From the IMG/VR virus record IMGVR_UViG_3300030031_000041, positions 2,764 through 66,763 of that record: 64,000 nt of DNA. One strand, written 5' to 3'. This DNA comes from a virus. Every line of letters starts with the position of its first letter. Positions within the stretch are counted from its first letter, which is position 1. The translations under genes were made by a program, and so were the position numbers. The notes below the pieces were generated by a model that did no database searches, was not told the origin of the DNA, and worked only from the letters and a program-made list of their open reading frames with translations. This document shows, piece by piece, positions 2,563-55,807 of this stretch.

Positions 2563-3582
2563 ATGGATAAAGAAATTGTTGCAAATTTTGAGAATTTATA
2601 TCGTTCTTACAAAAAGGTTAAGAGCGGTAAAAAATTTAATTCAGGTACTGCAAGATTTTCTAATTTGTCTCTTGAAGGCATTCATCTCTTGAAGGAACAA
2701 TTAGAAAGTCAAACGTATACCATAAATCCGTATAATAAATTTCAAATTCATGAGCCAAAAGAGCGAACGATAGAATCATGTGCATTTAAGGACAAAGTAG
2801 TGCAGAGATGCTTTTCTGATTACATTTTGACACCAAAACTTGAAAATATCCTGATTAAATGGAACACTGCCGGGCAGCAAGGAAAAGGGCAACACATGGC
2901 AATGGACGGGTTAAAAAATCAAATGTTGGATTTCTATAAAAGAAATGGAATGAATAGTTGGATTGTAAAATGTGATATTCACAAATACTTTTATTGCATA
3001 GACCATGAAATCATGAAAGATGTTTTGGATTATTACTTTGATGATGATTTTACAGTCTGGTTAAACCATTTGTTTATTGACAGTACAGGTAATCCCGGGC
3101 TTCCATTAGGAAATCAGGTAAATCAGAAGTACGCATTGTTGCTTTTACATTCACTGGATCAGATGATAACGATTGAATTTGGAAATCCATATTACGGACG
3201 ATACAACGATGATTTTTATGTGATTTGTAAAACGAAAGAAGATGCCAGAGAAATTCTTGAGGCAATCCGAAAGATGGTTGAAAGCCTTGGACTGGAACTA
3301 AACCCTAAATCACAAATTGTACCATTTCGCATGGGCTTGTGTTATCTGGGCTTTCATCATTACGTGACTGATGAAGGAAAATATATCAGAAAATTGCGTG
3401 GTGATAAGAAACGAAAAACACAGAGAAAAATCCGAAGATGGGTACGGGCAGTAAATGACAGGAAGATGTTGATAGAAAAATTTCATGAAAAATACGGAGC
3501 ATGCAAGAATCATATGCTTCATGGAAATTGCACCAAACTATGCCATAGTATGGATTTGGATATTGAAAGGAGAATGAAGTGA
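2563..3582 (+). CDS. DGR reverse transcriptase
   Basis: RT motifs: LPLGNQVNQ (DGR-type [I/L]GxxxSQ-like motif 4), YNDDF catalytic box (YxDD), 339 aa. Confidence 0.85.
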   Translation: MDKEIVANFENLYRSYKKVKSGKKFNSGTARFSNLSLEGIHLLKEQLESQTYTINPYNKFQIHEPKERTIESCAFKDKVVQRCFSDYILTPKLENILIKWNTAGQQGKGQHMAMDGLKNQMLDFYKRNGMNSWIVKCDIHKYFYCIDHEIMKDVLDYYFDDDFTVWLNHLFIDSTGNPGLPLGNQVNQKYALLLLHSLDQMITIEFGNPYYGRYNDDFYVICKTKEDAREILEAIRKMVESLGLELNPKSQIVPFRMGLCYLGFHHYVTDEGKYIRKLRGDKKRKTQRKIRRWVRAVNDRKMLIEKFHEKYGACKNHMLHGNCTKLCHSMDLDIERRMK

Positions 3583-12680: not shown

Positions 12681-13574
12681 TTGGCAGAAGTAAAATGGAT
12701 TAAAATGGCAACAAACATTTGGGATAATAGAAAAATTGTTCAAATTGAATCCCTTCCAGATGGAGATACGATCATTGTTATATGGTTAAAACTTTTGTGC
12801 CTTGCCGGGACAACTAATGATTCTGGAATGGTTTATTTTACAAAAGAAATACCATATACAGAACAAATGCTCTCCACACTGTTTAATCGACCTCTGGCAA
12901 CTATACAGTTTGCTTTAAAGGTGTTCCAAGAATTCGAAATGATATCAATTATTGATGATTTTTTACAGATTTCCAATTGGAAAAAATATCAGAACATCGA
13001 AGGCATGGACAAAATTAGAGAACAGAACCGAATCAGGAAGCAAAATCAGAGAGAAAGGCAAAAAATTATGATTGAACAAGATATGTCACGTGACATGTCA
13101 CGTGACGTCACGCAACAGAATAAGATAAAGAATAAGAAAGAAGATATAGATAAAGAGAAAGATAATAAATTAATAGTATCTAAAGATACTATTTGTCAGA
13201 CTGATGTCCGACGCGTCATCGAAGAATGGAACAAATTACAGGAAGTTGGTATCAATCCAATACGCGATATTAAACCATCATCAAAAAGATGTCAGTTACT
13301 CAAAGGGCGAATCCGTGAATACGGAATTGATGAAGTCCTTAATGCAATCAACAACGTTCGCAACAGTGATTTTCTGCGAGGAGAGAATAACCGCGGATGG
13401 ATGATAACATTTGACTGGTTCGTAAAGCCGAATAATTTTGCAAAAGTTTTAGAAGGAAACTACAACAAGGAGGGACAGCATGGAACTCGTAGAACAGTTA
13501 CAACACCTGTCAAACCACTTGTCCCATTCGACCAGTGGGACGGAGGAGAAGCTTCAGACACCCCATTCGTCTGA
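12681..13574 (+). CDS. phage replisome organizer (N-terminal phage_rep_org_N-like)
   Basis: MAEVKWIKMATNIWDNRKIV...; internal iterons. Confidence 0.65.
   Translation: MAEVKWIKMATNIWDNRKIVQIESLPDGDTIIVIWLKLLCLAGTTNDSGMVYFTKEIPYTEQMLSTLFNRPLATIQFALKVFQEFEMISIIDDFLQISNWKKYQNIEGMDKIREQNRIRKQNQRERQKIMIEQDMSRDMSRDVTQQNKIKNKKEDIDKEKDNKLIVSKDTICQTDVRRVIEEWNKLQEVGINPIRDIKPSSKRCQLLKGRIREYGIDEVLNAINNVRNSDFLRGENNRGWMITFDWFVKPNNFAKVLEGNYNKEGQHGTRRTVTTPVKPLVPFDQWDGGEASDTPFV
13083..13112 (+). repeat. tandem 12-bp iteron ATGTCACGTGAC x2.5 containing palindrome GTCACGTGAC; candidate replication origin
   Basis: direct tandem repeat inside replisome organizer gene linker region. Confidence 0.5.
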
Positions 13575-14331
13575 ATGCCCGAAATGTCATGGGACTGGAT
13601 ATTATATAGAATTTGAAGGTGACGTTCAGTATGCTGTGGAGTGTCAATGTGGAATTAGAAAGAAAACTATTTTGCAGAACCAGTTAAAATTTGCAGAGAT
13701 TCCCGAGATGTATAAAGAATGTACATTTGCGAATCTGAGAAGCAATGTTTATCGGTTGCCGGAAAGCAAAGAAATATTTATTCAGGCAGCAAAAGCTGTG
13801 AAGTACTGGATTGAAAATATCGGAGAGATGCAGGAACAGGGAATGGGATTGTATATCTGTTCCGGTGTAAAGGGATCTGGAAAGACAAGATTTGCGTGTA
13901 GCATGGCTAATGAACTGATACAGAAATACCAAAAATCAGTTAAGTTTACTACTTCATTGAGAATTCTTGAAGAAATCAAGTCCACATGGTCATCCCGTGA
14001 TAATGCGACGGAAAGCAAATTGATTCGTAATCTAACATATGCAGACATTTTGATTATTGATGATTTCGGAGCGGATTCCGGGAGAGATTGGATTAACGAA
14101 AAATTCTATGGGATTATCAACGGACGGTATGTGGATAGAAAAATCACTATCTTCACAAGTAATTATCGCATATCACAACTTCCGTATGATGATCGAATCA
14201 CGAATAGGATTCTGGAGCGGTCTTATGAAATCCCGTTTCCGGAAGAATCAGTCAGGGAACACATAGCGGATGCAATGAAACAGGAACTTATCAAAAAGAT
14301 TCAAGGCGGTGAAAATGGAAAACAAGCGTAA
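13480..14331 (+). CDS. DnaC/IstB-like helicase loader ATPase with N-terminal Zn-ribbon
   Basis: Walker A GVKGSGKT, Walker B ILIIDDFG; overlaps organizer gene end. Confidence 0.7.
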   Translation: MELVEQLQHLSNHLSHSTSGTEEKLQTPHSSECPKCHGTGYYIEFEGDVQYAVECQCGIRKKTILQNQLKFAEIPEMYKECTFANLRSNVYRLPESKEIFIQAAKAVKYWIENIGEMQEQGMGLYICSGVKGSGKTRFACSMANELIQKYQKSVKFTTSLRILEEIKSTWSSRDNATESKLIRNLTYADILIIDDFGADSGRDWINEKFYGIINGRYVDRKITIFTSNYRISQLPYDDRITNRILERSYEIPFPEESVREHIADAMKQELIKKIQGGENGKQA

Positions 14332-15079: not shown

Positions 15080-15097
15080 ACATGATATGTGCGGCAC
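15080..15097 (+). repeat. inverted repeat arm L (ACATGATATGTGCGGCAC) upstream of recombinase
   Basis: 17/18 match to reverse complement of 16533..16550. Confidence 0.6.
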
Positions 15098-15122
15098 ATT
15101 TCTACACAAAGGAGGAATAGTC

Positions 15123-16487
15123 ATGGAATGTGTTGCGTATTTGCGTGTATCAACAGAAAAACAGGCCGAAGAGGGAAATGGATTAGACAGTCAGAAAAGA
15201 GATATTGAAAATTATTGTAGAAAAAATCAATTGATTATATCTGATTGGTACGAGGATGACGGCTTCACAGGTTCGAATATGAATCGTCCAGCATTGCAAC
15301 GCTTAATTAATGATTGCTCAAAGAAAAAATTAAAATGTGTTGTAGCGTTTAAACTAGATCGATTATCAAGAAGCATGGTCGATGGAATATACTTAATTGA
15401 ACGTGTATTCATACCTAATGGGGTGGATTTTAGATGCGTGCATGATAGTGTAAGCTACGACAGCCCAATGGAGCAAGCATACACTCAGATGATGGCAGTG
15501 TTTGCGCAACTTGACAAAAATACTATGTTGCTTAGAATGCGTGGCGGTATGCTGGAGCGAGTGAAACAGGGATATTGGATGGGAGGTGGCAACACTCCTT
15601 ATTGCTATAGATATAGCAAAGAAGACGGAATCTTAGTTCCCATACCAGAACGCAAAGAAATGGCTTTGCGAGCTATGAATTTGTATATATCCGGTTATTC
15701 TGATGTTCGAATACATAAATTGATAGGATTTAAAAGCGAGTTTGTTACACGACAGGTTCTTACCAGTCCTGTAAATATTGGCATGATTCCGTATAAAGGG
15801 AAACTATATAAGGGAAGACATGAACCAATTTTCGATATTAAAGTATTTGAATTAGCCCAGGAATTAAGAAAAACTCGTAAGCAAAGTAAAAGCTTCTGTG
15901 TTAATCACGAGAATCAGCTCTTGACGGGGCTGTGCTATTGCGGAGTGTGCGGGTGCAAGATGAGATATCAGAAATGGACTCATGGAAAGCATAAAATTTA
16001 TTGCTATTCAAGGGATAACGGCATGTCGTACTTACCAAATTATAATCCGAATTGCAACAATTCGCTTGAGTGGGCAGAAGATATTGAAAAGCAGGTTGAA
16101 GATGAGATTTTAAAGATTTCCCTCAATTTATCATCGCATAAGCCAAAAGAAAGAGAAAGCTGTCTGGACATTTTGAGTAAACAACTCCAAAAAGAAAAAA
16201 CGAAGCTAAAACGTCTATATACTCTTTATGCTGAGGGAAATGATACGGTTTTGGAGATGATAAAAGAAACGGAATCCGGTATAGATGAATTAAAACTAAA
16301 AATACAGAACGAGATGAAGAGCCCGGATAACTCACAGAAGAAAGAATTTGTATACGATAATATAAAAAAGCTTGCCGATGTGTGGGAACACATTGACAAG
16401 CAAAACAAAAACCGTATATTAAAAACTATAATATCAAAAATAATTATAGTCAATGGAAATATTGAAATACAGTTGAAGAAATTTTAG
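15123..16487 (+). CDS. large serine recombinase (integrase-type)
   Basis: VAYLRVSTEKQ..GLDSQ catalytic N-terminus, recombinase and Zn-ribbon/coiled-coil C-terminal region; RBS GGAGG. Confidence 0.8.
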   Translation: MECVAYLRVSTEKQAEEGNGLDSQKRDIENYCRKNQLIISDWYEDDGFTGSNMNRPALQRLINDCSKKKLKCVVAFKLDRLSRSMVDGIYLIERVFIPNGVDFRCVHDSVSYDSPMEQAYTQMMAVFAQLDKNTMLLRMRGGMLERVKQGYWMGGGNTPYCYRYSKEDGILVPIPERKEMALRAMNLYISGYSDVRIHKLIGFKSEFVTRQVLTSPVNIGMIPYKGKLYKGRHEPIFDIKVFELAQELRKTRKQSKSFCVNHENQLLTGLCYCGVCGCKMRYQKWTHGKHKIYCYSRDNGMSYLPNYNPNCNNSLEWAEDIEKQVEDEILKISLNLSSHKPKERESCLDILSKQLQKEKTKLKRLYTLYAEGNDTVLEMIKETESGIDELKLKIQNEMKSPDNSQKKEFVYDNIKKLADVWEHIDKQNKNRILKTIISKIIIVNGNIEIQLKKF

Positions 16488-16532
16488 CACAAACTATATG
16501 CCATAGGAACTGCATTATGTAAGTGCTAATAA

Positions 16533-16550
16533 GTGCCGCACGTATCATGT
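16533..16550 (-). repeat. inverted repeat arm R (GTGCCGCACGTATCATGT)
   Basis: reverse complement matches 15080..15097 at 17/18. Confidence 0.6.
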
Positions 16551-16573
16551 CAATAAATAACAGGAGGGTAACG

Positions 16574-17251
16574 ATGATCTCACAGGGAATCAGCCATACT
16601 GCATACGATACCATGAAAGAATATATGCTCACAGGAGCCGAACTGGACGGCAAATACCAAATTCCAATGATGGACAGGTATGTGGACGAAATACCACAAG
16701 ACACAGTGGATTTTAAAGACAGTTTCAGCCGAAAGATAAAGAATCATCGAGAATTAAGCATCAACTTTTATATCCATGACTGCGAATTTGAAAAGCTATG
16801 GAATAATCCAGATAGATACCTGGAACACTTGAAATGTTTCAAGAGCGTGATCGCACCAGACTTTTCAATGGCAGTCGGTGAAAATGGTATGCCATTTGCT
16901 ATGAATATCTGGAACAAATACAGAAATCATGCCATGGCTCATTATCTCAGTATGAACGAGATAAAGGTGATTCCTAACGTGAGCATACCTCCAGAGTATT
17001 GCTATGACTGGGCTTTTGATGGTGTGCCAAAAAGAAGCACCGTAGCATGTTGCACCAATGGAAGAATTAAATCCAGAGCATCCAGAGAAGAATTCTGTAT
17101 AGGCTTTAAAGAAATGGAAAGGCGCATAGAGCCGCTCCGAGTTATCGTTGTAGGGAAAATACCACCTGAACTCAATACGGACGTGGAAATCATCAATTTC
17201 AAGACCAGAAGTCAGAAGATCAAGGATAAGGAGGGAAAATATGGGGTATAG
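16574..17251 (+). CDS. hypothetical protein
   Basis: ATG 16574 after AGGAGGG; ORF track 16523..17251. Confidence 0.5.
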   Translation: MISQGISHTAYDTMKEYMLTGAELDGKYQIPMMDRYVDEIPQDTVDFKDSFSRKIKNHRELSINFYIHDCEFEKLWNNPDRYLEHLKCFKSVIAPDFSMAVGENGMPFAMNIWNKYRNHAMAHYLSMNEIKVIPNVSIPPEYCYDWAFDGVPKRSTVACCTNGRIKSRASREEFCIGFKEMERRIEPLRVIVVGKIPPELNTDVEIINFKTRSQKIKDKEGKYGV

Positions 17252-18157: not shown

Positions 18158-18186
18158 ACGAGAAAAATAGCAGCTTTTTACTGCTC
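18158..18186 (-). terminator. intrinsic terminator of minus-strand cassette
   Basis: AGCAG/CTGCT stem followed on minus strand by U-rich tract. Confidence 0.45.
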
Positions 18187-18564
18187 TAAATAATATATAT
18201 TTGTTATCGTTGGCAAGTCCCGGAAGAATTCCAGGAAGCCGGAACTGTCAAGAATATTATACTGGCGGTCAGATGTTGGAATCATGCAGCCGTTTTTGAT
18301 CTCCATACAGGAAAGTTGTAAATATCCCGGTTTTTTCGTGGATTTATGCAGCGCGTACCGCATAACAGACACCGCACCAGACCGGCAGCGCACCGGCGGC
18401 AAGTCGTACCAGATTAGCGGGACAGCACCGAAAGAAACCGTATCAAAGACCTGTTTAGCGTCTCTTTTTGCGGCTGCTCCGATTTTATCAACGGTGGAAA
18501 AATCCCCGCTTAAAATTGCGTCAATGGTCTGTTCTGACGTTGGTTTTACAATTCTGTCTATCAT
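18178..18564 (-). CDS. hypothetical protein
   Basis: ORF track; GC-richer than surroundings. Confidence 0.5.
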   Translation of the reverse strand: MIDRIVKPTSEQTIDAILSGDFSTVDKIGAAAKRDAKQVFDTVSFGAVPLIWYDLPPVRCRSGAVSVMRYALHKSTKKPGYLQLSCMEIKNGCMIPTSDRQYNILDSSGFLEFFRDLPTITNIYYLEQ

Positions 18565-18638
18565 ATATAAGCCTCCATTCTGATTGAAAAACAGGCGGGA
18601 AAGCCCCGCCCGAAATTGTTTTATTTGATTTAAAAAGC

Positions 18639-19007
18639 CTAAATCCTTTTTATAAACTCGGTTTCCGTATAGTTTTCTCCGGTTACCTCATTCACAAATG
18701 CCAAGATTCCGGACTTTGTGAAATCAAAGCGGGTAAAGTCAAAGCCCCTTTGTGCAAGCCTGTATTCATAAGAACGTCCGCAGCCTTCAGCGTCGTAATA
18801 CGTTCCGTCGATATGCAAGGCGTTAGGCTGTACCACTGGACAGCCTTTTTTATTTGCGTCGCGCCTCTGGTAGCTTCCAAAATCCGCAATAACGTGCAGG
18901 CCGTCCAATGTATCAAATTCTGCGCGAACTCTGCAATTTGGAACGTCTGAGCCGTTTCTATAGCCTGTTCCTGTACATCCGTATTCTACTAATGTTATTT
19001 TTTTCAT
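18639..19007 (-). CDS. hypothetical protein
   Basis: ORF track. Confidence 0.5.
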   Translation of the reverse strand: MKKITLVEYGCTGTGYRNGSDVPNCRVRAEFDTLDGLHVIADFGSYQRRDANKKGCPVVQPNALHIDGTYYDAEGCGRSYEYRLAQRGFDFTRFDFTKSGILAFVNEVTGENYTETEFIKRI

Positions 19008-19077
19008 GTTTTTAATCCTCCTGATTTTATTTTAAAAGGCCGCCGGGGAAATGCTCCCCGGTACGCTTGCCGGTCTG

Positions 19078-19677
19078 TTAATCGCAGATATATGACCAAG
19101 AATTCACTTTTGTTGTTCCGTATCTTTTTAAATATGCATCAATCCGTTTTTCGAATGCTTTTCTAACTTCTTTAAAGCCGTCAATAATTTTCTGGATATC
19201 GTCCGCACCCAGCTTTTTTATATCCTTGCAATTAATCCAACGCATCGGGGTAAATTCTGGATTATATCCGGTTCTCACCACCGTGAAAGCCTTTAATTTG
19301 CTGTCGTCTGGCTGTCCCATATAATGAGTATATGTATAACACTCGTATTCATAACCGCTCAAACATTTTTCAAGATCCTCTATATCAGAATCAATCTTTT
19401 TTAGATTTTGTTCTTTAAAATATTGCTCGCTTTTTCGGGCTAATGCTGCCATGTCTTCGGCGTCTTTCATTTCTTCATTGGTGCAAGTACCATAAGAGCC
19501 AGCACCAAAACAAAAGTCCTTTTTTATAGATGGTTTTTCAATATCTGCGATATCTCCATTTGAAAATTGAACCACATAAGCGCAATTTTTCTTTGCAAAA
19601 TTTTGCATGTACTCATCTTCCCATACCTCTGTTTTAATAATACTCATGTACATTTCTTTTAATTCTTTCTGCGTCAT
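19078..19677 (-). CDS. hypothetical protein
   Basis: internal Met MTQKELK chosen as start; upstream extension Arg/Ser-rich and likely spurious. Confidence 0.45.
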   Translation of the reverse strand: MTQKELKEMYMSIIKTEVWEDEYMQNFAKKNCAYVVQFSNGDIADIEKPSIKKDFCFGAGSYGTCTNEEMKDAEDMAALARKSEQYFKEQNLKKIDSDIEDLEKCLSGYEYECYTYTHYMGQPDDSKLKAFTVVRTGYNPEFTPMRWINCKDIKKLGADDIQKIIDGFKEVRKAFEKRIDAYLKRYGTTKVNSWSYICD

Positions 19678-19756
19678 AGCTGTTATACCTCTTTTCTTAT
19701 TTTTTTGAAATCCGGCGGTTGCGTTGGGGCTACGGCTTGACCGCCGCCGGAAAAAT

Positions 19757-20095
19757 TTATTTGATTTTTGTATCTGTCCAGATATCAAGGATACTACGGA
19801 AACAATTTAATTCATCAACGGTAAAGCCGCCGTCATTAATATGGAATATTGCATAATCTCCATATTTTTCGTTTATGTCCTGAACGTAATTATAAAATTT
19901 TTCGAACCGTTCCAGGCGGTCAAAATCTAAAATATACCATTTGTGACCGGCTGGAAGAGTTTTGATAAATTCCTCCGCGTTACTCGGGCAATTGAATGCA
20001 CCCGAAACGCTCACTTTGCTTTTACGGTCGTCTTGTGTGCTGCGGTCGATCATTGTGAAGACTGCCCAACTTAAATACTTTGTATATTTATTCAT
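19757..20095 (-). CDS. hypothetical protein
   Basis: start MNKYTKYL at 20095; upstream part of ORF track is Cys/Tyr-rich low-complexity overlapping operator region. Confidence 0.45.
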   Translation of the reverse strand: MNKYTKYLSWAVFTMIDRSTQDDRKSKVSVSGAFNCPSNAEEFIKTLPAGHKWYILDFDRLERFEKFYNYVQDINEKYGDYAIFHINDGGFTVDELNCFRSILDIWTDTKIK

Positions 20096-20243
20096 TGCTT
20101 TTTTCCTCCATTCTCCCGGCTTTGCGACCGGGTTGGTTGTTCTCTGTTGATGGTTATATAATACTATATATAACGCACATATACAAGACGGAATACTAAC
20201 CAAATAACGCACATATATTAAAGACAAAATTGTGCATAATGTA

Positions 20244-20290
20244 TAACGCACATAGATATATTGACAATCTAACGCACATACATTATAATA
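20244..20290 (+). promoter_or_regulatory. promoter-operator copy 1: TTGACA-17-TATAAT with TAACGCACATA sites
   Basis: exact 47-bp direct repeat with 20505..20551; consensus -35/-10 with 17-bp spacer. Confidence 0.6.
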
Positions 20291-20321
20291 GAAGAAAAAC
20301 GAAACGGGAGGCGGTCGAGTT

Positions 20322-20507
20322 ATGGCAACAGAAGCACAGCGTAAAGCAGTCAGAACATATGAAAAAAACAACTATAGACTTAATATAGTATTTCCCAAGG
20401 ACACCAAAGAACGCATTGAAAAATTAAACCTTAATAAAAGCAATAGCGCATTTATTAGAGATACCGTTCTTGCAGAGCTGGACAGACTTGAAAAAATATT
20501 AAAATAA
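20322..20507 (+). CDS. ribbon-helix-helix (CopG/Arc-like) regulator
   Basis: 61 aa, N-terminal basic beta-strand-like segment then helices; flanked by operator repeats. Confidence 0.5.
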   Translation: MATEAQRKAVRTYEKNNYRLNIVFPKDTKERIEKLNLNKSNSAFIRDTVLAELDRLEKILK

Positions 20508-20551
20508 CGCACATAGATATATTGACAATCTAACGCACATACATTATAATA
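20505..20551 (+). promoter_or_regulatory. promoter-operator copy 2
   Basis: identical to 20244..20290. Confidence 0.6.
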
Positions 20552-20602
20552 AAGATAACAAAAGAAGAACTCCCCAGACGGGGAAATATAGGAGGGTAAG
20601 AA

Positions 20603-20923
20603 ATGCAGGAAATTTACAGGAGTTTTGAAGGGAAGTTAAATGTTGATTGTCAGGACGGATATATTATCCTTGAGTTGAAAGAAAGATACCAAATTGAATG
20701 GTTGACTGTCTGGGGGAAAACGCAGAAAATACGAGTAAAAAAAGATCTGCTTCCGGTGGAAGATTTCGGAAATGCTTCGAAAATATCTGAACTTTTTACG
20801 GATATTTCGCATGGATGTTTAAAAGGATGCATGTATTATTACAAAAACTCGTGGTATAGCTATGACAAAATACTTGAGATTCAAAAGAAAAATCAAAGTA
20901 ATAACTGGCAGGCATATGTATAA
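20603..20923 (+). CDS. hypothetical protein
   Basis: ORF track, RBS GGAGGG. Confidence 0.5.
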   Translation: MQEIYRSFEGKLNVDCQDGYIILELKERYQIEWLTVWGKTQKIRVKKDLLPVEDFGNASKISELFTDISHGCLKGCMYYYKNSWYSYDKILEIQKKNQSNNWQAYV

Positions 20924-20993
20924 AATTAACAATTAAACAAGGGGAGGGAACAAGAGGATAATTACAAACAAGCCATATTTGAATACAAAATAA

Positions 20994-21025
20994 GCCCTTT
21001 GGAATTCACCAAGGGGCTTTTATCA
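20994..21025 (+). terminator. intrinsic terminator
   Basis: GCCCTTTGG/CCAAGGGGC stem then TTTTATC..TTTTTT. Confidence 0.5.
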
Positions 21026-21236
21026 TGCTTTTTTGTGGCGGCTTTTAGGACAGGTACAGAACTGCCGCCGAAGTCCTGACATAATTATTCATAGCACAAT
21101 ATCATCAAAAAGTCAACGACAAATTTTTACTTGACTTTTACGAGTCGTTCTGTTATGTTCAATACAACGAAGCCGACGGAACTCAGGAAGGGGCAGGGCT
21201 GACAAAGCGGATCGTAACTGAATACGAAAAAAATAT

Positions 21237-21280
21237 AGCCAGATCACACCGGAATAGCTGCCGGAAGGTCTGGCTTTTTG
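21237..21280 (+). terminator. intrinsic terminator (possible sRNA 3-prime end)
   Basis: AGCCAGATC..GGTCTGGC stem with inner hairpin, then TTTTT. Confidence 0.45.
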
Positions 21281-21656
21281 TGTGTTCAAAATGCCCTATT
21301 ATAATATTATATATATTAATATTATGGATTATGAATATCTATAATTATAGTTATTCCCTGTCCCTTCATAGATTCCAGAGGCTGAGTTGATTAATATAAT
21401 ATTGTATATAGTATATATAATATACATAGATATAGTATATGCTGTTATATGAGATTGACTAAAAGTTTTAAATTAATAGTTGACAGAATAACAACTTGTA
21501 TGTTAATACTGTTAATAGAGATACAGATACAGGCCGAAAGCGAGAACGAACCGCTGGAGGACTGAACCGGTTAGCTACTGGACAACGAACCAGAGTCGAC
21601 CGGCTTTTTTTATTTATGATGATTTAATAGATTAACGTTATAAAGGAGGTGATACA

Positions 21657-22352
21657 GTGCAGAGTACAGACAATAGCGTGTTAGATACGTTTAAACAGGA
21701 CACAAAGAAATACTTAGATATATTTTGCGCTGAATATGGTATTGAAGACCTTATGAAAGCACCTCAGAACACATTTGAGTCAGCTCTTAGTTATGCAGGG
21801 GATCATGTATTTCTGAAGCCTGAAAACGTAACGCTCAAGTACAACAGACAGACTATATTAGATTGCGATAATGCAGAACTGATCAATTACATACTCGACT
21901 ATTATATATTTATATGTGGCGTATATAACAAGGAGTCAAATATACAAGGGTTTGCTAAATATATTAAGATTAGTGAACAGACTATGTATAACTGGGTAAA
22001 TGGAGAATATAAGACAAAGATATATATAGATACAGACGGCAATGTTATTAAGGATATACAGGAGTGGAAGTTGAATAAGAGAGGGGAGTATAGGGAAATA
22101 GCAAGCACAGCACACCTTGACCTAATCAAAAAATTAAATGCGAATGACGAACACTCACTTGCGAACATTGGAATCAGTGATAAGAATAACACAGGCGTGG
22201 CAATGAAACTCAATTCTAAATTCGGATGGAACGCACCAAACGGACGGAGCGCAGAAGAGAACAACGGAAAGCCAAAGCAGACGGCACAGCAGATTGCGGA
22301 TAAATACAAAGATGTTCTAGAGCTTCCGGAGATGGAAAAGCCGGAGCTATAA
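21657..22352 (+). CDS. hypothetical protein
   Basis: GTG start after AAAGGAGGTGAT. Confidence 0.5.
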   Translation: MQSTDNSVLDTFKQDTKKYLDIFCAEYGIEDLMKAPQNTFESALSYAGDHVFLKPENVTLKYNRQTILDCDNAELINYILDYYIFICGVYNKESNIQGFAKYIKISEQTMYNWVNGEYKTKIYIDTDGNVIKDIQEWKLNKRGEYREIASTAHLDLIKKLNANDEHSLANIGISDKNNTGVAMKLNSKFGWNAPNGRSAEENNGKPKQTAQQIADKYKDVLELPEMEKPEL

Positions 22353-22701: not shown

Positions 22702-22935
22702 TTACGACTCTTCTCTAACATCATCAATATTAAATTTGACAATTACATCTGGTATGGCTTCAACCACTATTTGGCATCCGAGGAAATCCAGAATAGTAAT
22801 CAACTCATTAGCAGAAAGCGTTCCTCTGGAAAACTTATTTGCCAAAGCTTGTGGAGAAGTTCCAAGATGTTCGGCAACTTGAACATTGGTTGCTTTTTTG
22901 AGTCTCATTATCTGTTTTACTTTTTGAGAAACCAT
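22702..22935 (-). CDS. XRE-family HTH transcriptional regulator (Cro/CI-like)
   Basis: 77 aa, HTH QVAEHLGTSPQALANKFS. Confidence 0.7.
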   Translation of the reverse strand: MVSQKVKQIMRLKKATNVQVAEHLGTSPQALANKFSRGTLSANELITILDFLGCQIVVEAIPDVIVKFNIDDVREES

Positions 22936-23017
22936 AACGATACCTCCTATAATTATATAATAAACGCAAACGTTTCAAAAATCAATAATAATTCACTTGA
23001 ATGTGAACAATATACTT

Positions 23018-23046
23018 GCAATCACACACGCTAAGGTGTATAATTT
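23018..23046 (+). promoter_or_regulatory. sigma70-like promoter TTGCAA-17-TATAAT
   Basis: upstream of small serine recombinase. Confidence 0.4.
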
Positions 23047-23074
23047 ATTTATAAAGAAACAGGAGCGTGTATAT

Positions 23075-23665
23075 ATGAAGGTAGGATATGTAAGGGTTTC
23101 AACAGTTGACCAGAACGAAGCAAGACAGATTGAAGCCATGAAAGCAGATAGCGTTGAAAAAATATACGTGGACAAACAGTCAGGAAAAGATTTTAATCGT
23201 CCGCAATACCAGCAAATGATTTCGGAACTTAGAGAAGGTGACATGCTGGTTCTCCATTCTATCGATCGTCTCGGAAGAAATTATGAAGAGATTCTGGAAC
23301 AATGGAGGATTATTACAAAAGAAATCAAAGCGGACATCATGGTTCAAGATATGCCACTTCTCAATACATCCATATCAAAAAATTTGGATGGTACGTTTGT
23401 AGCAGACTTAGTTCTCCAGATTCTTTCGTATGTATCGCAAAAAGAAAGAGAAAATATCAAACGCCGTCAAGCAGAGGGCATTGCCATTGCTAAGGCTCAG
23501 GGCAAATATAAAGGACGTGCAAAGAAAGAGATTGACAAAAAACTTTTTGAAGATACTAAAGCCAGATGGCAGAATGGTGAGATTACAAAAATTCAATTTG
23601 CTGAAACCATTGGAGTTTCCAGGGGAACATTATACAGAATCTTAGGGGAGGAAAAGGATGATTGA
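23075..23665 (+). CDS. small serine recombinase (resolvase/invertase type)
   Basis: MKVGYVRVSTVDQN..., C-terminal HTH GVSRGTLYRIL; RBS AGGAG. Confidence 0.75.
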   Translation: MKVGYVRVSTVDQNEARQIEAMKADSVEKIYVDKQSGKDFNRPQYQQMISELREGDMLVLHSIDRLGRNYEEILEQWRIITKEIKADIMVQDMPLLNTSISKNLDGTFVADLVLQILSYVSQKERENIKRRQAEGIAIAKAQGKYKGRAKKEIDKKLFEDTKARWQNGEITKIQFAETIGVSRGTLYRILGEEKDD

Positions 23666-55477: not shown

Positions 55478-55807
55478 ATGAGTAGACTTGGAAAAGAAAT
55501 GCCGGCAGAGTATTCTGACCGATTTGATGAACTGAGGCAAAACCGGTGCGAAACAAGCTTTTACAAATACGGCACGGCAAAAGATAATTTTGGAGAACGT
55601 CTGGTAAATGCGATTGAATCACACGATATGTGCATTAAAAAATATAAAGAAACTGGTAACACGGAGTATCTTTGCGATGCTGCGAATTATCTGATGTTCG
55701 AATTTATGTATCCACAAATCGAAGGTGCTTATTTCAAAGCAACCGACAGTGGGAAAAGTGCCGGAGTAGTTGGAACACCAATTAATCAGTTAAAGGAGAA
55801 ATGGTAG
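55478..55807 (+). CDS. hypothetical protein
   Basis: ORF track. Confidence 0.45.
   Translation: MSRLGKEMPAEYSDRFDELRQNRCETSFYKYGTAKDNFGERLVNAIESHDMCIKKYKETGNTEYLCDAANYLMFEFMYPQIEGAYFKATDSGKSAGVVGTPINQLKEKW

Follow-up and report, generated by a model that had tools for sequence, protein, structure and literature searches.

A 64-kb stretch of viral DNA, called the window in what follows (64,000 nucleotides, the whole of the sequence analysed), carries a gene for a 61-amino acid ribbon-helix-helix (RHH) protein that is bracketed by two identical promoters and surrounded by six copies of the 11-mer TAACGCACATA. The question raised by this locus is what such a protein and its repeats control. The original prediction was of a lysogeny switch with an XRE partner, built around an autoregulated RHH repressor of two rightward promoters. 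The repressor and the switch can be judged separately, and the comparison of the window with related phages bears on both.

Promoters, putative operators and the RHH protein

The six-site, two-promoter feature is real and non-random. All six exact copies of TAACGCACATA lie on the plus strand, at positions 20171, 20205, 20244, 20270, 20505 and 20531; the original prediction had the right number, with the second copy given as 20215 where it should read 20205. When one mismatch is tolerated, seven matches occur in 64 kb against an expectation of 1.13, and none of 100 shuffled sequences reaches seven. The seventh match, at 55627 on the minus strand with one mismatch, is the sole one outside the RHH locus and no more than chance would give, which confines the sites to that locus. 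With no further sites in the 64-kb window, the predicted regulon would therefore be local.

The exact repeat that brackets the RHH gene had been described as 47 bp long. The bracketing stands and the length is 48 bp, positions 20243-20290 (block P1, plus strand) being identical to 20504-20551 (block P2, plus strand). Each copy consists of TTGACA, the 17-nt spacer ATCTAACGCACATACAT and TATAAT, at 20261-20266 and 20284-20289 for the P1 hexamers and at 20522-20527 and 20545-20550 for those of P2, and these are the only promoter matches of 12/12 within 17-24 kb. As predicted, every block holds one 11-mer in the spacer and one upstream. The spacer is filled by putative site 4 (20270-20280) in P1 and by putative site 6 (20531-20541) in P2, at about -27 to -17; putative sites 3 (20244-20254) and 5 (20505-20515) lie 6 nt 5' of the -35 hexamer, at about -53 to -43. 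All four are on the plus strand, and the paired 11-mers are non-palindromic direct repeats spaced 24-26 bp apart.

The predicted repressor gene itself (20322-20507, plus strand, ribosome-binding site GGGAGG) occupies the place between the blocks that the original prediction gave it, and its TAA stop codon forms the first three bases of site 5. Behind P2 follows one open reading frame of 106 codons, which we refer to as the cargo gene (20603-20923, plus strand, ribosome-binding site GGAGG) and which P1 read-through would also reach. The P1/P2 unit is closed by an intrinsic terminator at 20992-21034 on the plus strand, with an 11-bp stem (-17.7 kcal/mol, z -3.9) and a U-rich tract after it.

On the other side of the region a gene of 112 codons diverges leftward, as had been noted (19757-20095, minus strand, ribosome-binding site GGAGGA). 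It is the first of four open reading frames, of 112, 198, 122 and 128 amino acids, that make up a leftward accessory operon at 18178-20095 on the minus strand. The operon is presumed to be driven by a leftward promoter, PL, at 20158-20186 on the minus strand (-35 TTGTAT at 20186-20181, a 17-nt spacer and -10 TATTAT at 20163-20158). The original prediction did not contain the point that putative operator site 1 (20171-20181, plus strand), whose position is kept in relatives, probably lies within the spacer of this promoter, which it fills. We infer PL rather than assert it, since its hexamers, although relatives conserve them beside the first operator, reach only 8-10 of 12, less than P1 or P2. 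Putative site 2 (20205-20215, plus strand), a sequence match between PL and P1 that is likewise kept in relatives, would be an auxiliary operator.

An AlphaFold2 model of the 61-amino acid protein, computed from an alignment of the homologue clusters found by HMMER, has helices at residues 4-16, 28-34 and 41-60 and an extended segment between the first two (pLDDT 91). The predicted strand covers approximately residues 18-24 (YRLNIVF), and together these elements form a strand-helix-helix unit of about 45 residues. On this model the RHH (MetJ/Arc/CopG) fold that had been proposed for the protein is accepted. The N-terminal helix is conserved in the family, as KAVRxYEKxN, and may contribute to DNA or inter-dimer contacts.

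By sequence the protein is not placed in any curated family. It has no significant match in Pfam, NCBIfam or PADLOC, and its PHROGs match, phrog_31631, is a family of unknown function (E 5.2e-18, residues 4-59 aligned with profile positions 11-65 of 68). A HMMER search of 1.8 billion cluster representatives returned only 39 homologue clusters at E <= 1e-3, so the family is small. No curated RHH model is significant on the 39 family representatives; the best sub-threshold Pfam scores are those of RHH_5 in 5/39 (E 0.013), Arc in 1/39 (E 0.005) and RHH_1 in 1/39 (E 0.077), and RepB-RCR_reg also matched below threshold. Against PDB sequences the family profile aligns in register with the RHH domains of PutA, HP0222 and AmrZ, at non-significant E values of 0.11-0.31.

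The cassette and its protein across relatives

The exact 61-amino acid protein, which carries the annotation hypothetical protein and is assigned to Blautia obeum, is found on 276 contigs; a variant, P0106, occurs on 399 contigs and belongs to phages of about 44 kb. Hosts of close homologues are Blautia, Dorea, Roseburia, Falcatimonas, a Clostridium sp. and Oscillospiraceae, and the contig search with the single 61-amino acid protein gave seven Clostridia hosts. Among GenBank phages no match was obtained by megablast of 18-24 kb or by tblastn of the RHH protein, and Rfam gave none on 17-24 kb at E <= 1. Literature searches for the TAACGCACATA motif returned chance matches only, in plant and human papers, and those for phage RHH early promoters returned no match.

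The protein and the 11-mer travel together. A scan of IMG/VR for two motif copies 10-40 nt apart yielded 93 stretches, in 89 of which an RHH homologue adjoins the motif pair; another three are truncated pieces of contigs that encode an RHH homologue, which brings the linked stretches to 92 of 93. The one stretch with the motif and no RHH gene comes from an AT-rich virus and proved to be an unrelated 36-bp coding tandem repeat.

Comparison with related phages had been proposed along with the original prediction, and it reveals that the layout of four upstream and two downstream sites is kept and that the operator co-varies with the β-strand. Two sites lie just 3' of the RHH stop codon in 81 of 91 unique regions, and upstream of the gene there are four or five sites in 47/91 and one in 33/91. 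Within promoter pairs the sites of relatives are again 24-26 bp apart, and the distance of site 2 is 34-45 bp to site 1 and 37-39 bp to site 3. The promoter associated with the last downstream site, equivalent to P2, scores 12/12 in 53 of 87 unique relatives and at least 10/12 in 82; that associated with the last upstream site, equivalent to P1, scores at least 9/12 in 75/87 and 12/12 in 18/87. The 52 unique relatives with at least three upstream sites give an anchored consensus for the PL region of ttgTAT-ATGTGCGTTA-TAttt..tattata, the commonest form being TTGTAT-17-TATTAT.

The identity of P1 and P2 is also a property of the family. Within one locus, P1 and P2 agree at 93% of the non-operator bases that separate their paired sites (21 of 31 identical), compared with 73% identity between loci, so the duplication is a maintained family trait and not an accident of one genome. 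The sequences suggest that this identity is kept through gene conversion or through selection for an equal response. Site 5 is inverted in three loci (L144, L147 and L148), which fits with orientation-tolerant units.

Where the strand of the protein changes, so does the repeat. In loci with the strand NYRLNIVFP (V23; 77 unique loci), operator position 9 is A in 333 of 362 sites and T in 29, and in those with NYRLNLTFP (T23; seven loci) it is T in 32 of 33 sites, with the proviso that these counts are not phylogenetically independent and that the T23 variants may form one clade. In an alignment anchored on the Pro at the end of the strand we take residue 23 to be equivalent to Arg13 of Arc, and R19 and N21 to be equivalent to Gln9 and Asn11, all three of these Arc residues having side chains that contact bases. 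Among more distant homologues the repeats diverge further. L150, 48% identical and with the strand RVNCRL, carries TAAGGCACAAA in the familiar layout of four upstream and two downstream copies, situated in promoter spacers; L163 (RVNLIL) has AGTGCGTAA in promoter spacers that flank the RHH gene on both sides; L160 and L162 (RVPVTF) have AAATTCTACCGGGA, once upstream and four or five times downstream; and L151 (TVSCRL) has a different AT-rich repeat. The operator repeats thus change where strand residues 21 and 23 change, and this covariation is the pattern that direct readout by the strand would predict. With the linkage in 92/93 stretches, the conserved layout and the covariation, the proposal of an autoregulated RHH repressor of the two rightward promoters is well supported in silico.

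The window belongs to a temperate, tailed phage of gut Blautia, about 79 kb in size. It encodes a reverse transcriptase (2563-3582), DnaD/DnaC-like loaders (12681-14331), a large serine integrase (15087-16487), a DUF4417 nuclease, and terminase, portal and major head proteins whose genes start at 32.5 kb. In two integrated copies (L156 and L159, both in Blautia contigs) host genes abut the DUF4417 gene and homology to the window begins at about 16502, which places attP immediately behind the integrase gene and means that the window shows the excised or circular junction. In the window phage 3.6 kb separate the RHH module from the serine integrase and attP, and in the prophage form the module is about 3.7 kb from the left end. 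Leftward open reading frames at 5.4-7.0 kb were weighed as a possible canonical CI/Cro module in another part of the window and were rejected, being non-coding in appearance and having no Pfam match.

The setting is different in the most abundant relatives, the 44-kb group, where the cassette lies within the head-morphogenesis operon in antisense orientation, between minor-capsid and scaffold genes, and consists of P1 with one site, the RHH gene, P2 with two sites and a perfect consensus, a gene for an acidic protein of 57 amino acids and a terminator. The cassette recurs in hundreds of gut-phage sequences. From these sequences it is a portable unit with interchangeable cargo, present in many phages of Lachnospiraceae and Oscillospiraceae.

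The variety of that cargo is large: about 140 loci contain approximately 33 gene families downstream of the RHH cassette and 32 upstream, and most of the flanking proteins are small and acidic (45-170 amino acids, pI 4-5). The leftward genes vary even among phages with an identical RHH protein, as in the replacement of the 198-amino acid gene by one for a 318-amino acid DUF4121 protein. The four leftward genes of the window have no family match in Pfam, PHROGs, PADLOC or NCBIfam. The same four collections gave no match for the 106-amino acid cargo protein, whose family is narrow (24 clusters) and whose AlphaFold2 model is unreliable (pLDDT 49). We scanned 51 flank representatives, and 50 of them are without anti-defence annotation. 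The remaining one, whose gene immediately follows P2 in L072/L130, belongs to the AcrIC5 family (PF22147, E 5.6e-25; 87.7 bits, where the cutoff is 27), and a second, weak association with an anti-CRISPR gene occurs in L034. Other flank representatives matched GIY-YIG and ParE/RelE, the latter toxin type being cargo in L034 and L111. Homologues of AcrIC5 are known outside Pseudomonas, according to a passage in a recent preprint (bioRxiv 10.1101/2023.05.22.541795, citing Leon et al.).

A regulatory model and its rivals

We consider it probable that the 61-amino acid protein is an autoregulated repressor of P1, P2 and the inferred PL, and that through this circuit accessory genes, possibly with anti-defence roles, would be expressed either in a burst that is then shut off or homeostatically. 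The protein would recognise the non-palindromic 11-mer and, bound to the site in the -35/-10 spacer, would block RNA polymerase at each promoter; the placement of sites in the spacers is consistent with repression of the cargo promoter. The site 5' of each -35 hexamer, and site 2 in the divergent region, would probably add cooperativity. P1 would transcribe the repressor gene itself, P2, at the repressor stop codon, would transcribe the single cargo gene up to the terminator, and PL would transcribe the four-gene leftward operon. At infection, and perhaps at induction, there would be no repressor and the near-consensus promoters P1, P2 and PL would fire at once; the accumulating protein would then turn down all three, its own included, with the result of a burst followed by shut-off. 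In a lysogen the feedback loop would instead set a low level of expression that does not depend on copy number. Points against the model are the modest score of PL, the phylogenetic dependence of the covariation counts, with T at position 9 in 29 sites of V23 loci, and the spacing of the sites. Cooperating RHH dimers of Arc, CopG and omega use roughly one-turn spacing, and the 24-26 bp between the sites of a pair, about 2.3-2.5 helical turns, is unlike such a contact.

A more far-reaching version, which we put forward tentatively, is that the RHH family (phrog_31631, with no Pfam assignment) marks anti-defence islands, much as Aca proteins do, in phages that infect gut Clostridia. The approximately 65 flanking families would then be largely new anti-defence genes, those for the 106- and 112-amino acid proteins of the window among them, the operator-bearing promoters would produce an immediate-early counter-defence burst followed by shut-off, and the homogenised P1 and P2 would be recombination handles for swaps of cargo.

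The same repressor and operators could instead serve steady expression of prophage "moron" genes, with a constant low level of cargo in lysogens, no early burst, and cargo that acts in superinfection exclusion, host fitness or defence. The promoter-gene-terminator design would fit with this, as would the antisense placement in a late operon of the 44-kb group, the copies integrated in Blautia contigs, where about 3.7 kb lie between the module and the end of the prophage, and the ParE/RelE-type toxin as cargo in L034 and L111. However, perfect-consensus promoters exceed what a low steady level needs, PADLOC gave no defence match for the cargo of the window, and a cargo that is mostly small and very acidic, with one AcrIC5-family member, has the profile typical of early anti-defence genes; we regard moron expression as rather unlikely. 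The lysis-lysogeny or immunity switch, with the RHH protein as CI or Cro and a divergent partner, was suggested by the divergent promoter region with its multiple operators, and by the nearness of an integrase, the serine integrase with attP 3.6 kb away in the window and a tyrosine integrase 1.5-2.5 kb away in a distant homologue; P22 Arc, a similar protein, also belongs to an immunity region. A CI/Cro switch has two divergent DNA-binding regulators, shared operators and a fixed place, and controls the early lytic operons. The cassette does not have this form. Neither an HTH/XRE nor another DNA-binding signature was found in the 112-amino acid leftward protein with Pfam, PHROGs, NCBIfam and PADLOC, so that the XRE partner falls away, and relatives have genes of some 32 families at its place. 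The nearest HTH gene (77 amino acids, 22702-22935) is paired with a DNA invertase, absent from some relatives and outside the conserved cassette. P2 leads to one gene and a terminator, not to replication or lytic genes, the operator has no copies elsewhere in the 64 kb, and the commonest relatives carry the cassette inside a head operon. Since identical P1 and P2 would both be repressed by the product of one of them, negative feedback would be expected rather than a bistable switch. The switch of the original prediction is therefore one that we now consider very improbable.

Two further readings deserve mention and have, in our estimate, very little chance of being correct. The RHH protein could be the antitoxin of a type II toxin-antitoxin pair with the downstream gene as the toxin, and we give this a very slight chance. 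In the AlphaFold2 model the protein ends with helix B at residue 61 and has no C-terminal toxin-binding tail; a separate full promoter stands between the RHH gene and the cargo; and in place of a conserved cognate toxin there are 33 unrelated downstream families, mostly acidic and with AcrIC5 and GIY-YIG members, of which ParE/RelE-like proteins account for only two clusters. Slighter still is the chance that the 11-mers serve replication or partition, as iterons or a centromere, and are not transcriptional operators. They are direct repeats in one orientation, and RHH proteins that bind centromeres do exist, such as ParG and omega (PMC3130281). However, no ParA or Rep gene is adjacent, the phage integrates, and in nearly all relatives the sites are located precisely in promoter spacers.

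Relation to known RHH circuits

The autorepressor model has counterparts in several mobile elements. In Salmonella phage P22, Arc is encoded in the immI region (Pant-arc-ant) and binds as a tetramer to a palindromic 21-bp operator, with the antirepressor gene downstream. The logic of that circuit matches the cassette, and the sequence anatomy that it would call for is present in the window and kept in relatives. The window differs from P22 in that its sites are non-palindromic direct 11-mers 24-26 bp apart, its promoter is duplicated 3' of the regulator, and its cargo has no match to Ant and varies between phages. There is no significant sequence similarity between the regulators (Pfam Arc on one of 39 members, E 0.005). 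Omega of plasmid pSM19035 is an RHH dimer that reads a short non-palindromic unit, direct or inverted, at several promoters of one element. It needs contiguous 7-bp heptads, whereas the 11-mers of the window are 13-34 bp apart with unrelated sequence between them. ArtA of pSK41 is another RHH regulator whose dimer uses a short non-palindromic unit, again direct or inverted, at several promoters of one element (PMC2777438). Both omega and ArtA are plasmid maintenance regulators, and no sequence relationship was found between either of them and the RHH protein of the window.

The RHH repressor Reg576 of the conjugative plasmid p576 (pLS20 family, clade II) controls four strong promoters, its own included, from direct-repeat operators, so that genes for establishment and anti-restriction are expressed transiently once the plasmid has entered a new cell (PMC6294495, PMC8708921). 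An autoregulated RHH protein, direct-repeat sites and several strong promoters are likewise predicted in silico for the window, with three promoters and six sites. The Reg576 operator, however, is the dual heptamer TTATCCCnnTTATCCC, placed 5' of the -35 and sometimes after the start site and not in the spacer, and Reg576 is a plasmid protein, whereas the RHH protein of the window is from a phage. Reg576 is not among the matches of the family profile against PDB sequences at E <= 10.

Aca14 of Pasteurella multocida, a 66-amino acid RHH protein with an N-terminal helical extension, represses two operons, its own and an adjacent one for anti-defence, by way of similar sites in the two promoters (bioRxiv 10.64898/2026.07.27.740549). 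Aligned with hhalign, Aca14 and the RHH protein of the window are in register, with a common Y-x-K-x-N-Y motif before the strand; the homology is not significant, the family profile aligning with the Aca14-like protein P0160 (66 amino acids) at E 0.039 and a probability of 1.3%, and BLASTP giving an out-of-register segment at E 0.023. Aca14 differs from the window cassette in its site, an AT-rich inverted repeat overlapping the -10, and in its gene order, with the regulator downstream of the cargo. Its homologues match Pfam RHH_1 and RepB-RCR_reg, whereas the family studied here has no Pfam assignment. As to the anti-CRISPR adjacency that marks an Aca protein, it is seen with the AcrIC5-family gene after P2 in L072/L130, and the cargo genes of the window match nothing. 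With Arc, Reg576 and Aca14 alike, what is common would be the logic of the circuit rather than demonstrated homology, and the cassette stands apart from these three in the type of operator, the placement of sites, the order of genes and the duplication of the promoter.

The Arc, Aca and Reg576 circuits are all means by which mobile elements fire their entry genes hard and then silence them. The cassette would be a further, sequence-distinct RHH family that uses this logic of strong promoters and a small autorepressor, and it is unusual in its non-palindromic 11-mers, in the placement of a site inside a perfect consensus promoter and in the duplication of an identical block around the regulator. 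It also carries a caution for annotation, namely that a divergent, operator-rich region near an integrase is not always a lysogeny switch. The V23/A9 and T23/T9 pairs of protein and operator provide natural material for specificity swaps. The RHH family is very common in the phages of human-gut Lachnospiraceae. Since the flanking gene pool is rich, almost wholly uncharacterised and inclusive of an AcrIC5 homologue, the operator together with the RHH gene would be a search handle for anti-defence and accessory genes, of use for phages of gut bacteria that are hard to culture. If the Aca-like reading is true, new anti-defence genes would be discoverable there by guilt by association.

Phage form and other genes in the window

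Comparison of the window with two integrated copies of the phage, carried by the Blautia contigs L156 and L159, places the attP junction at 16488-16575. In both integrated copies the host genes, encoding PPK2 and an ECF-type sigma factor, directly adjoin the DUF4417 gene, and homology to the window starts at ~16502, i.e., 15 bp past the serine-integrase stop codon; the window thus shows the phage in its excised or circular state. A reverse transcriptase gene at 2563-3582 (phrog_1423, E 6e-87) suggests the presence of a diversity-generating retroelement. A minus-strand gene for a 77-aa HTH protein (DUF6471/HTH_26; within 22702-23665) and a divergent gene for a Hin/Gin-type DNA invertase (23066-23665) are separated by near-consensus promoters, and this pair is absent from some otherwise syntenic relatives, namely L154, L158 and L159.

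Variants of the operator sites and of the RHH gene

In the related stretches L144, L147 and L148, site 5 of the six putative operators lies just after the RHH stop codon and is inverted (TAAGTGCGTAA), with site 6 in the usual orientation, suggesting that either orientation is tolerated at the auxiliary site. Downstream of the distant RHH homologue in L150, positions 780-1397 encode a 205-aa protein; its N-terminus (KAIDKYNEKFERMTVNLPLGTRAMI...) has the appearance of another copy of this RHH module. Only one of the 93 IMG/VR stretches with a motif pair lacks an RHH gene. This is L036 (1730-1860), from an AT-rich viral contig of 127 kb, where a 386-aa ORF contains a 36-bp tandem repeat that holds the 11-mer; L036 was rejected as an operator locus, the 11-mer there being a chance occurrence in a coding repeat.

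Leader hairpins and the gap after the cargo gene

The predicted 5' leader of the P2 transcript contains a GC-rich hairpin (CTCCCCAGACGGGGAA; 20570-20587), and another GC-rich hairpin occupies the predicted 5' leader of the leftward transcript (20115-20132). The gaps that follow the 198-aa and 112-aa leftward genes each contain a related GCCGCCGG(G/A)GAAAT element, at 19039 and 19743 respectively.

The 730-bp gap 3' of the cargo gene is kept in relatives and contains two promoter-plus-terminator units without an ORF. One runs from a TTGACT-17-TATGTT promoter to a terminator at 21260-21280 (unit 21131-21280), the other (unit 21482-21612) from TTGACA, near 21482, as far as a T-run at about 21605. 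Their products may be small RNAs; neither unit had a match in Rfam at E <= 1. A short way upstream of a GP3_package-like gene (21657-22352), AT-rich palindromes and inverted repeats (I4, I7, I8, I12 and I24) are densely clustered at 21298-21440, which makes this stretch a possible site of packaging or replication.

Genes in the post-P2 position of relatives

Directly after P2, L072 (the same contig as L130) encodes a 67-aa AcrIC5-family protein (557-757; PF22147, 87.7 bits). A weaker AcrIC5-related stretch is found in L034 (5906-5992), downstream of a ParE-like gene. The post-P2 position is occupied by a ParE/RelE-type toxin gene in L034 and L111, and by a GIY-YIG homing-endonuclease-like gene in L005 and L101; the post-P2 slot is thus open to selfish or toxic genes as well.
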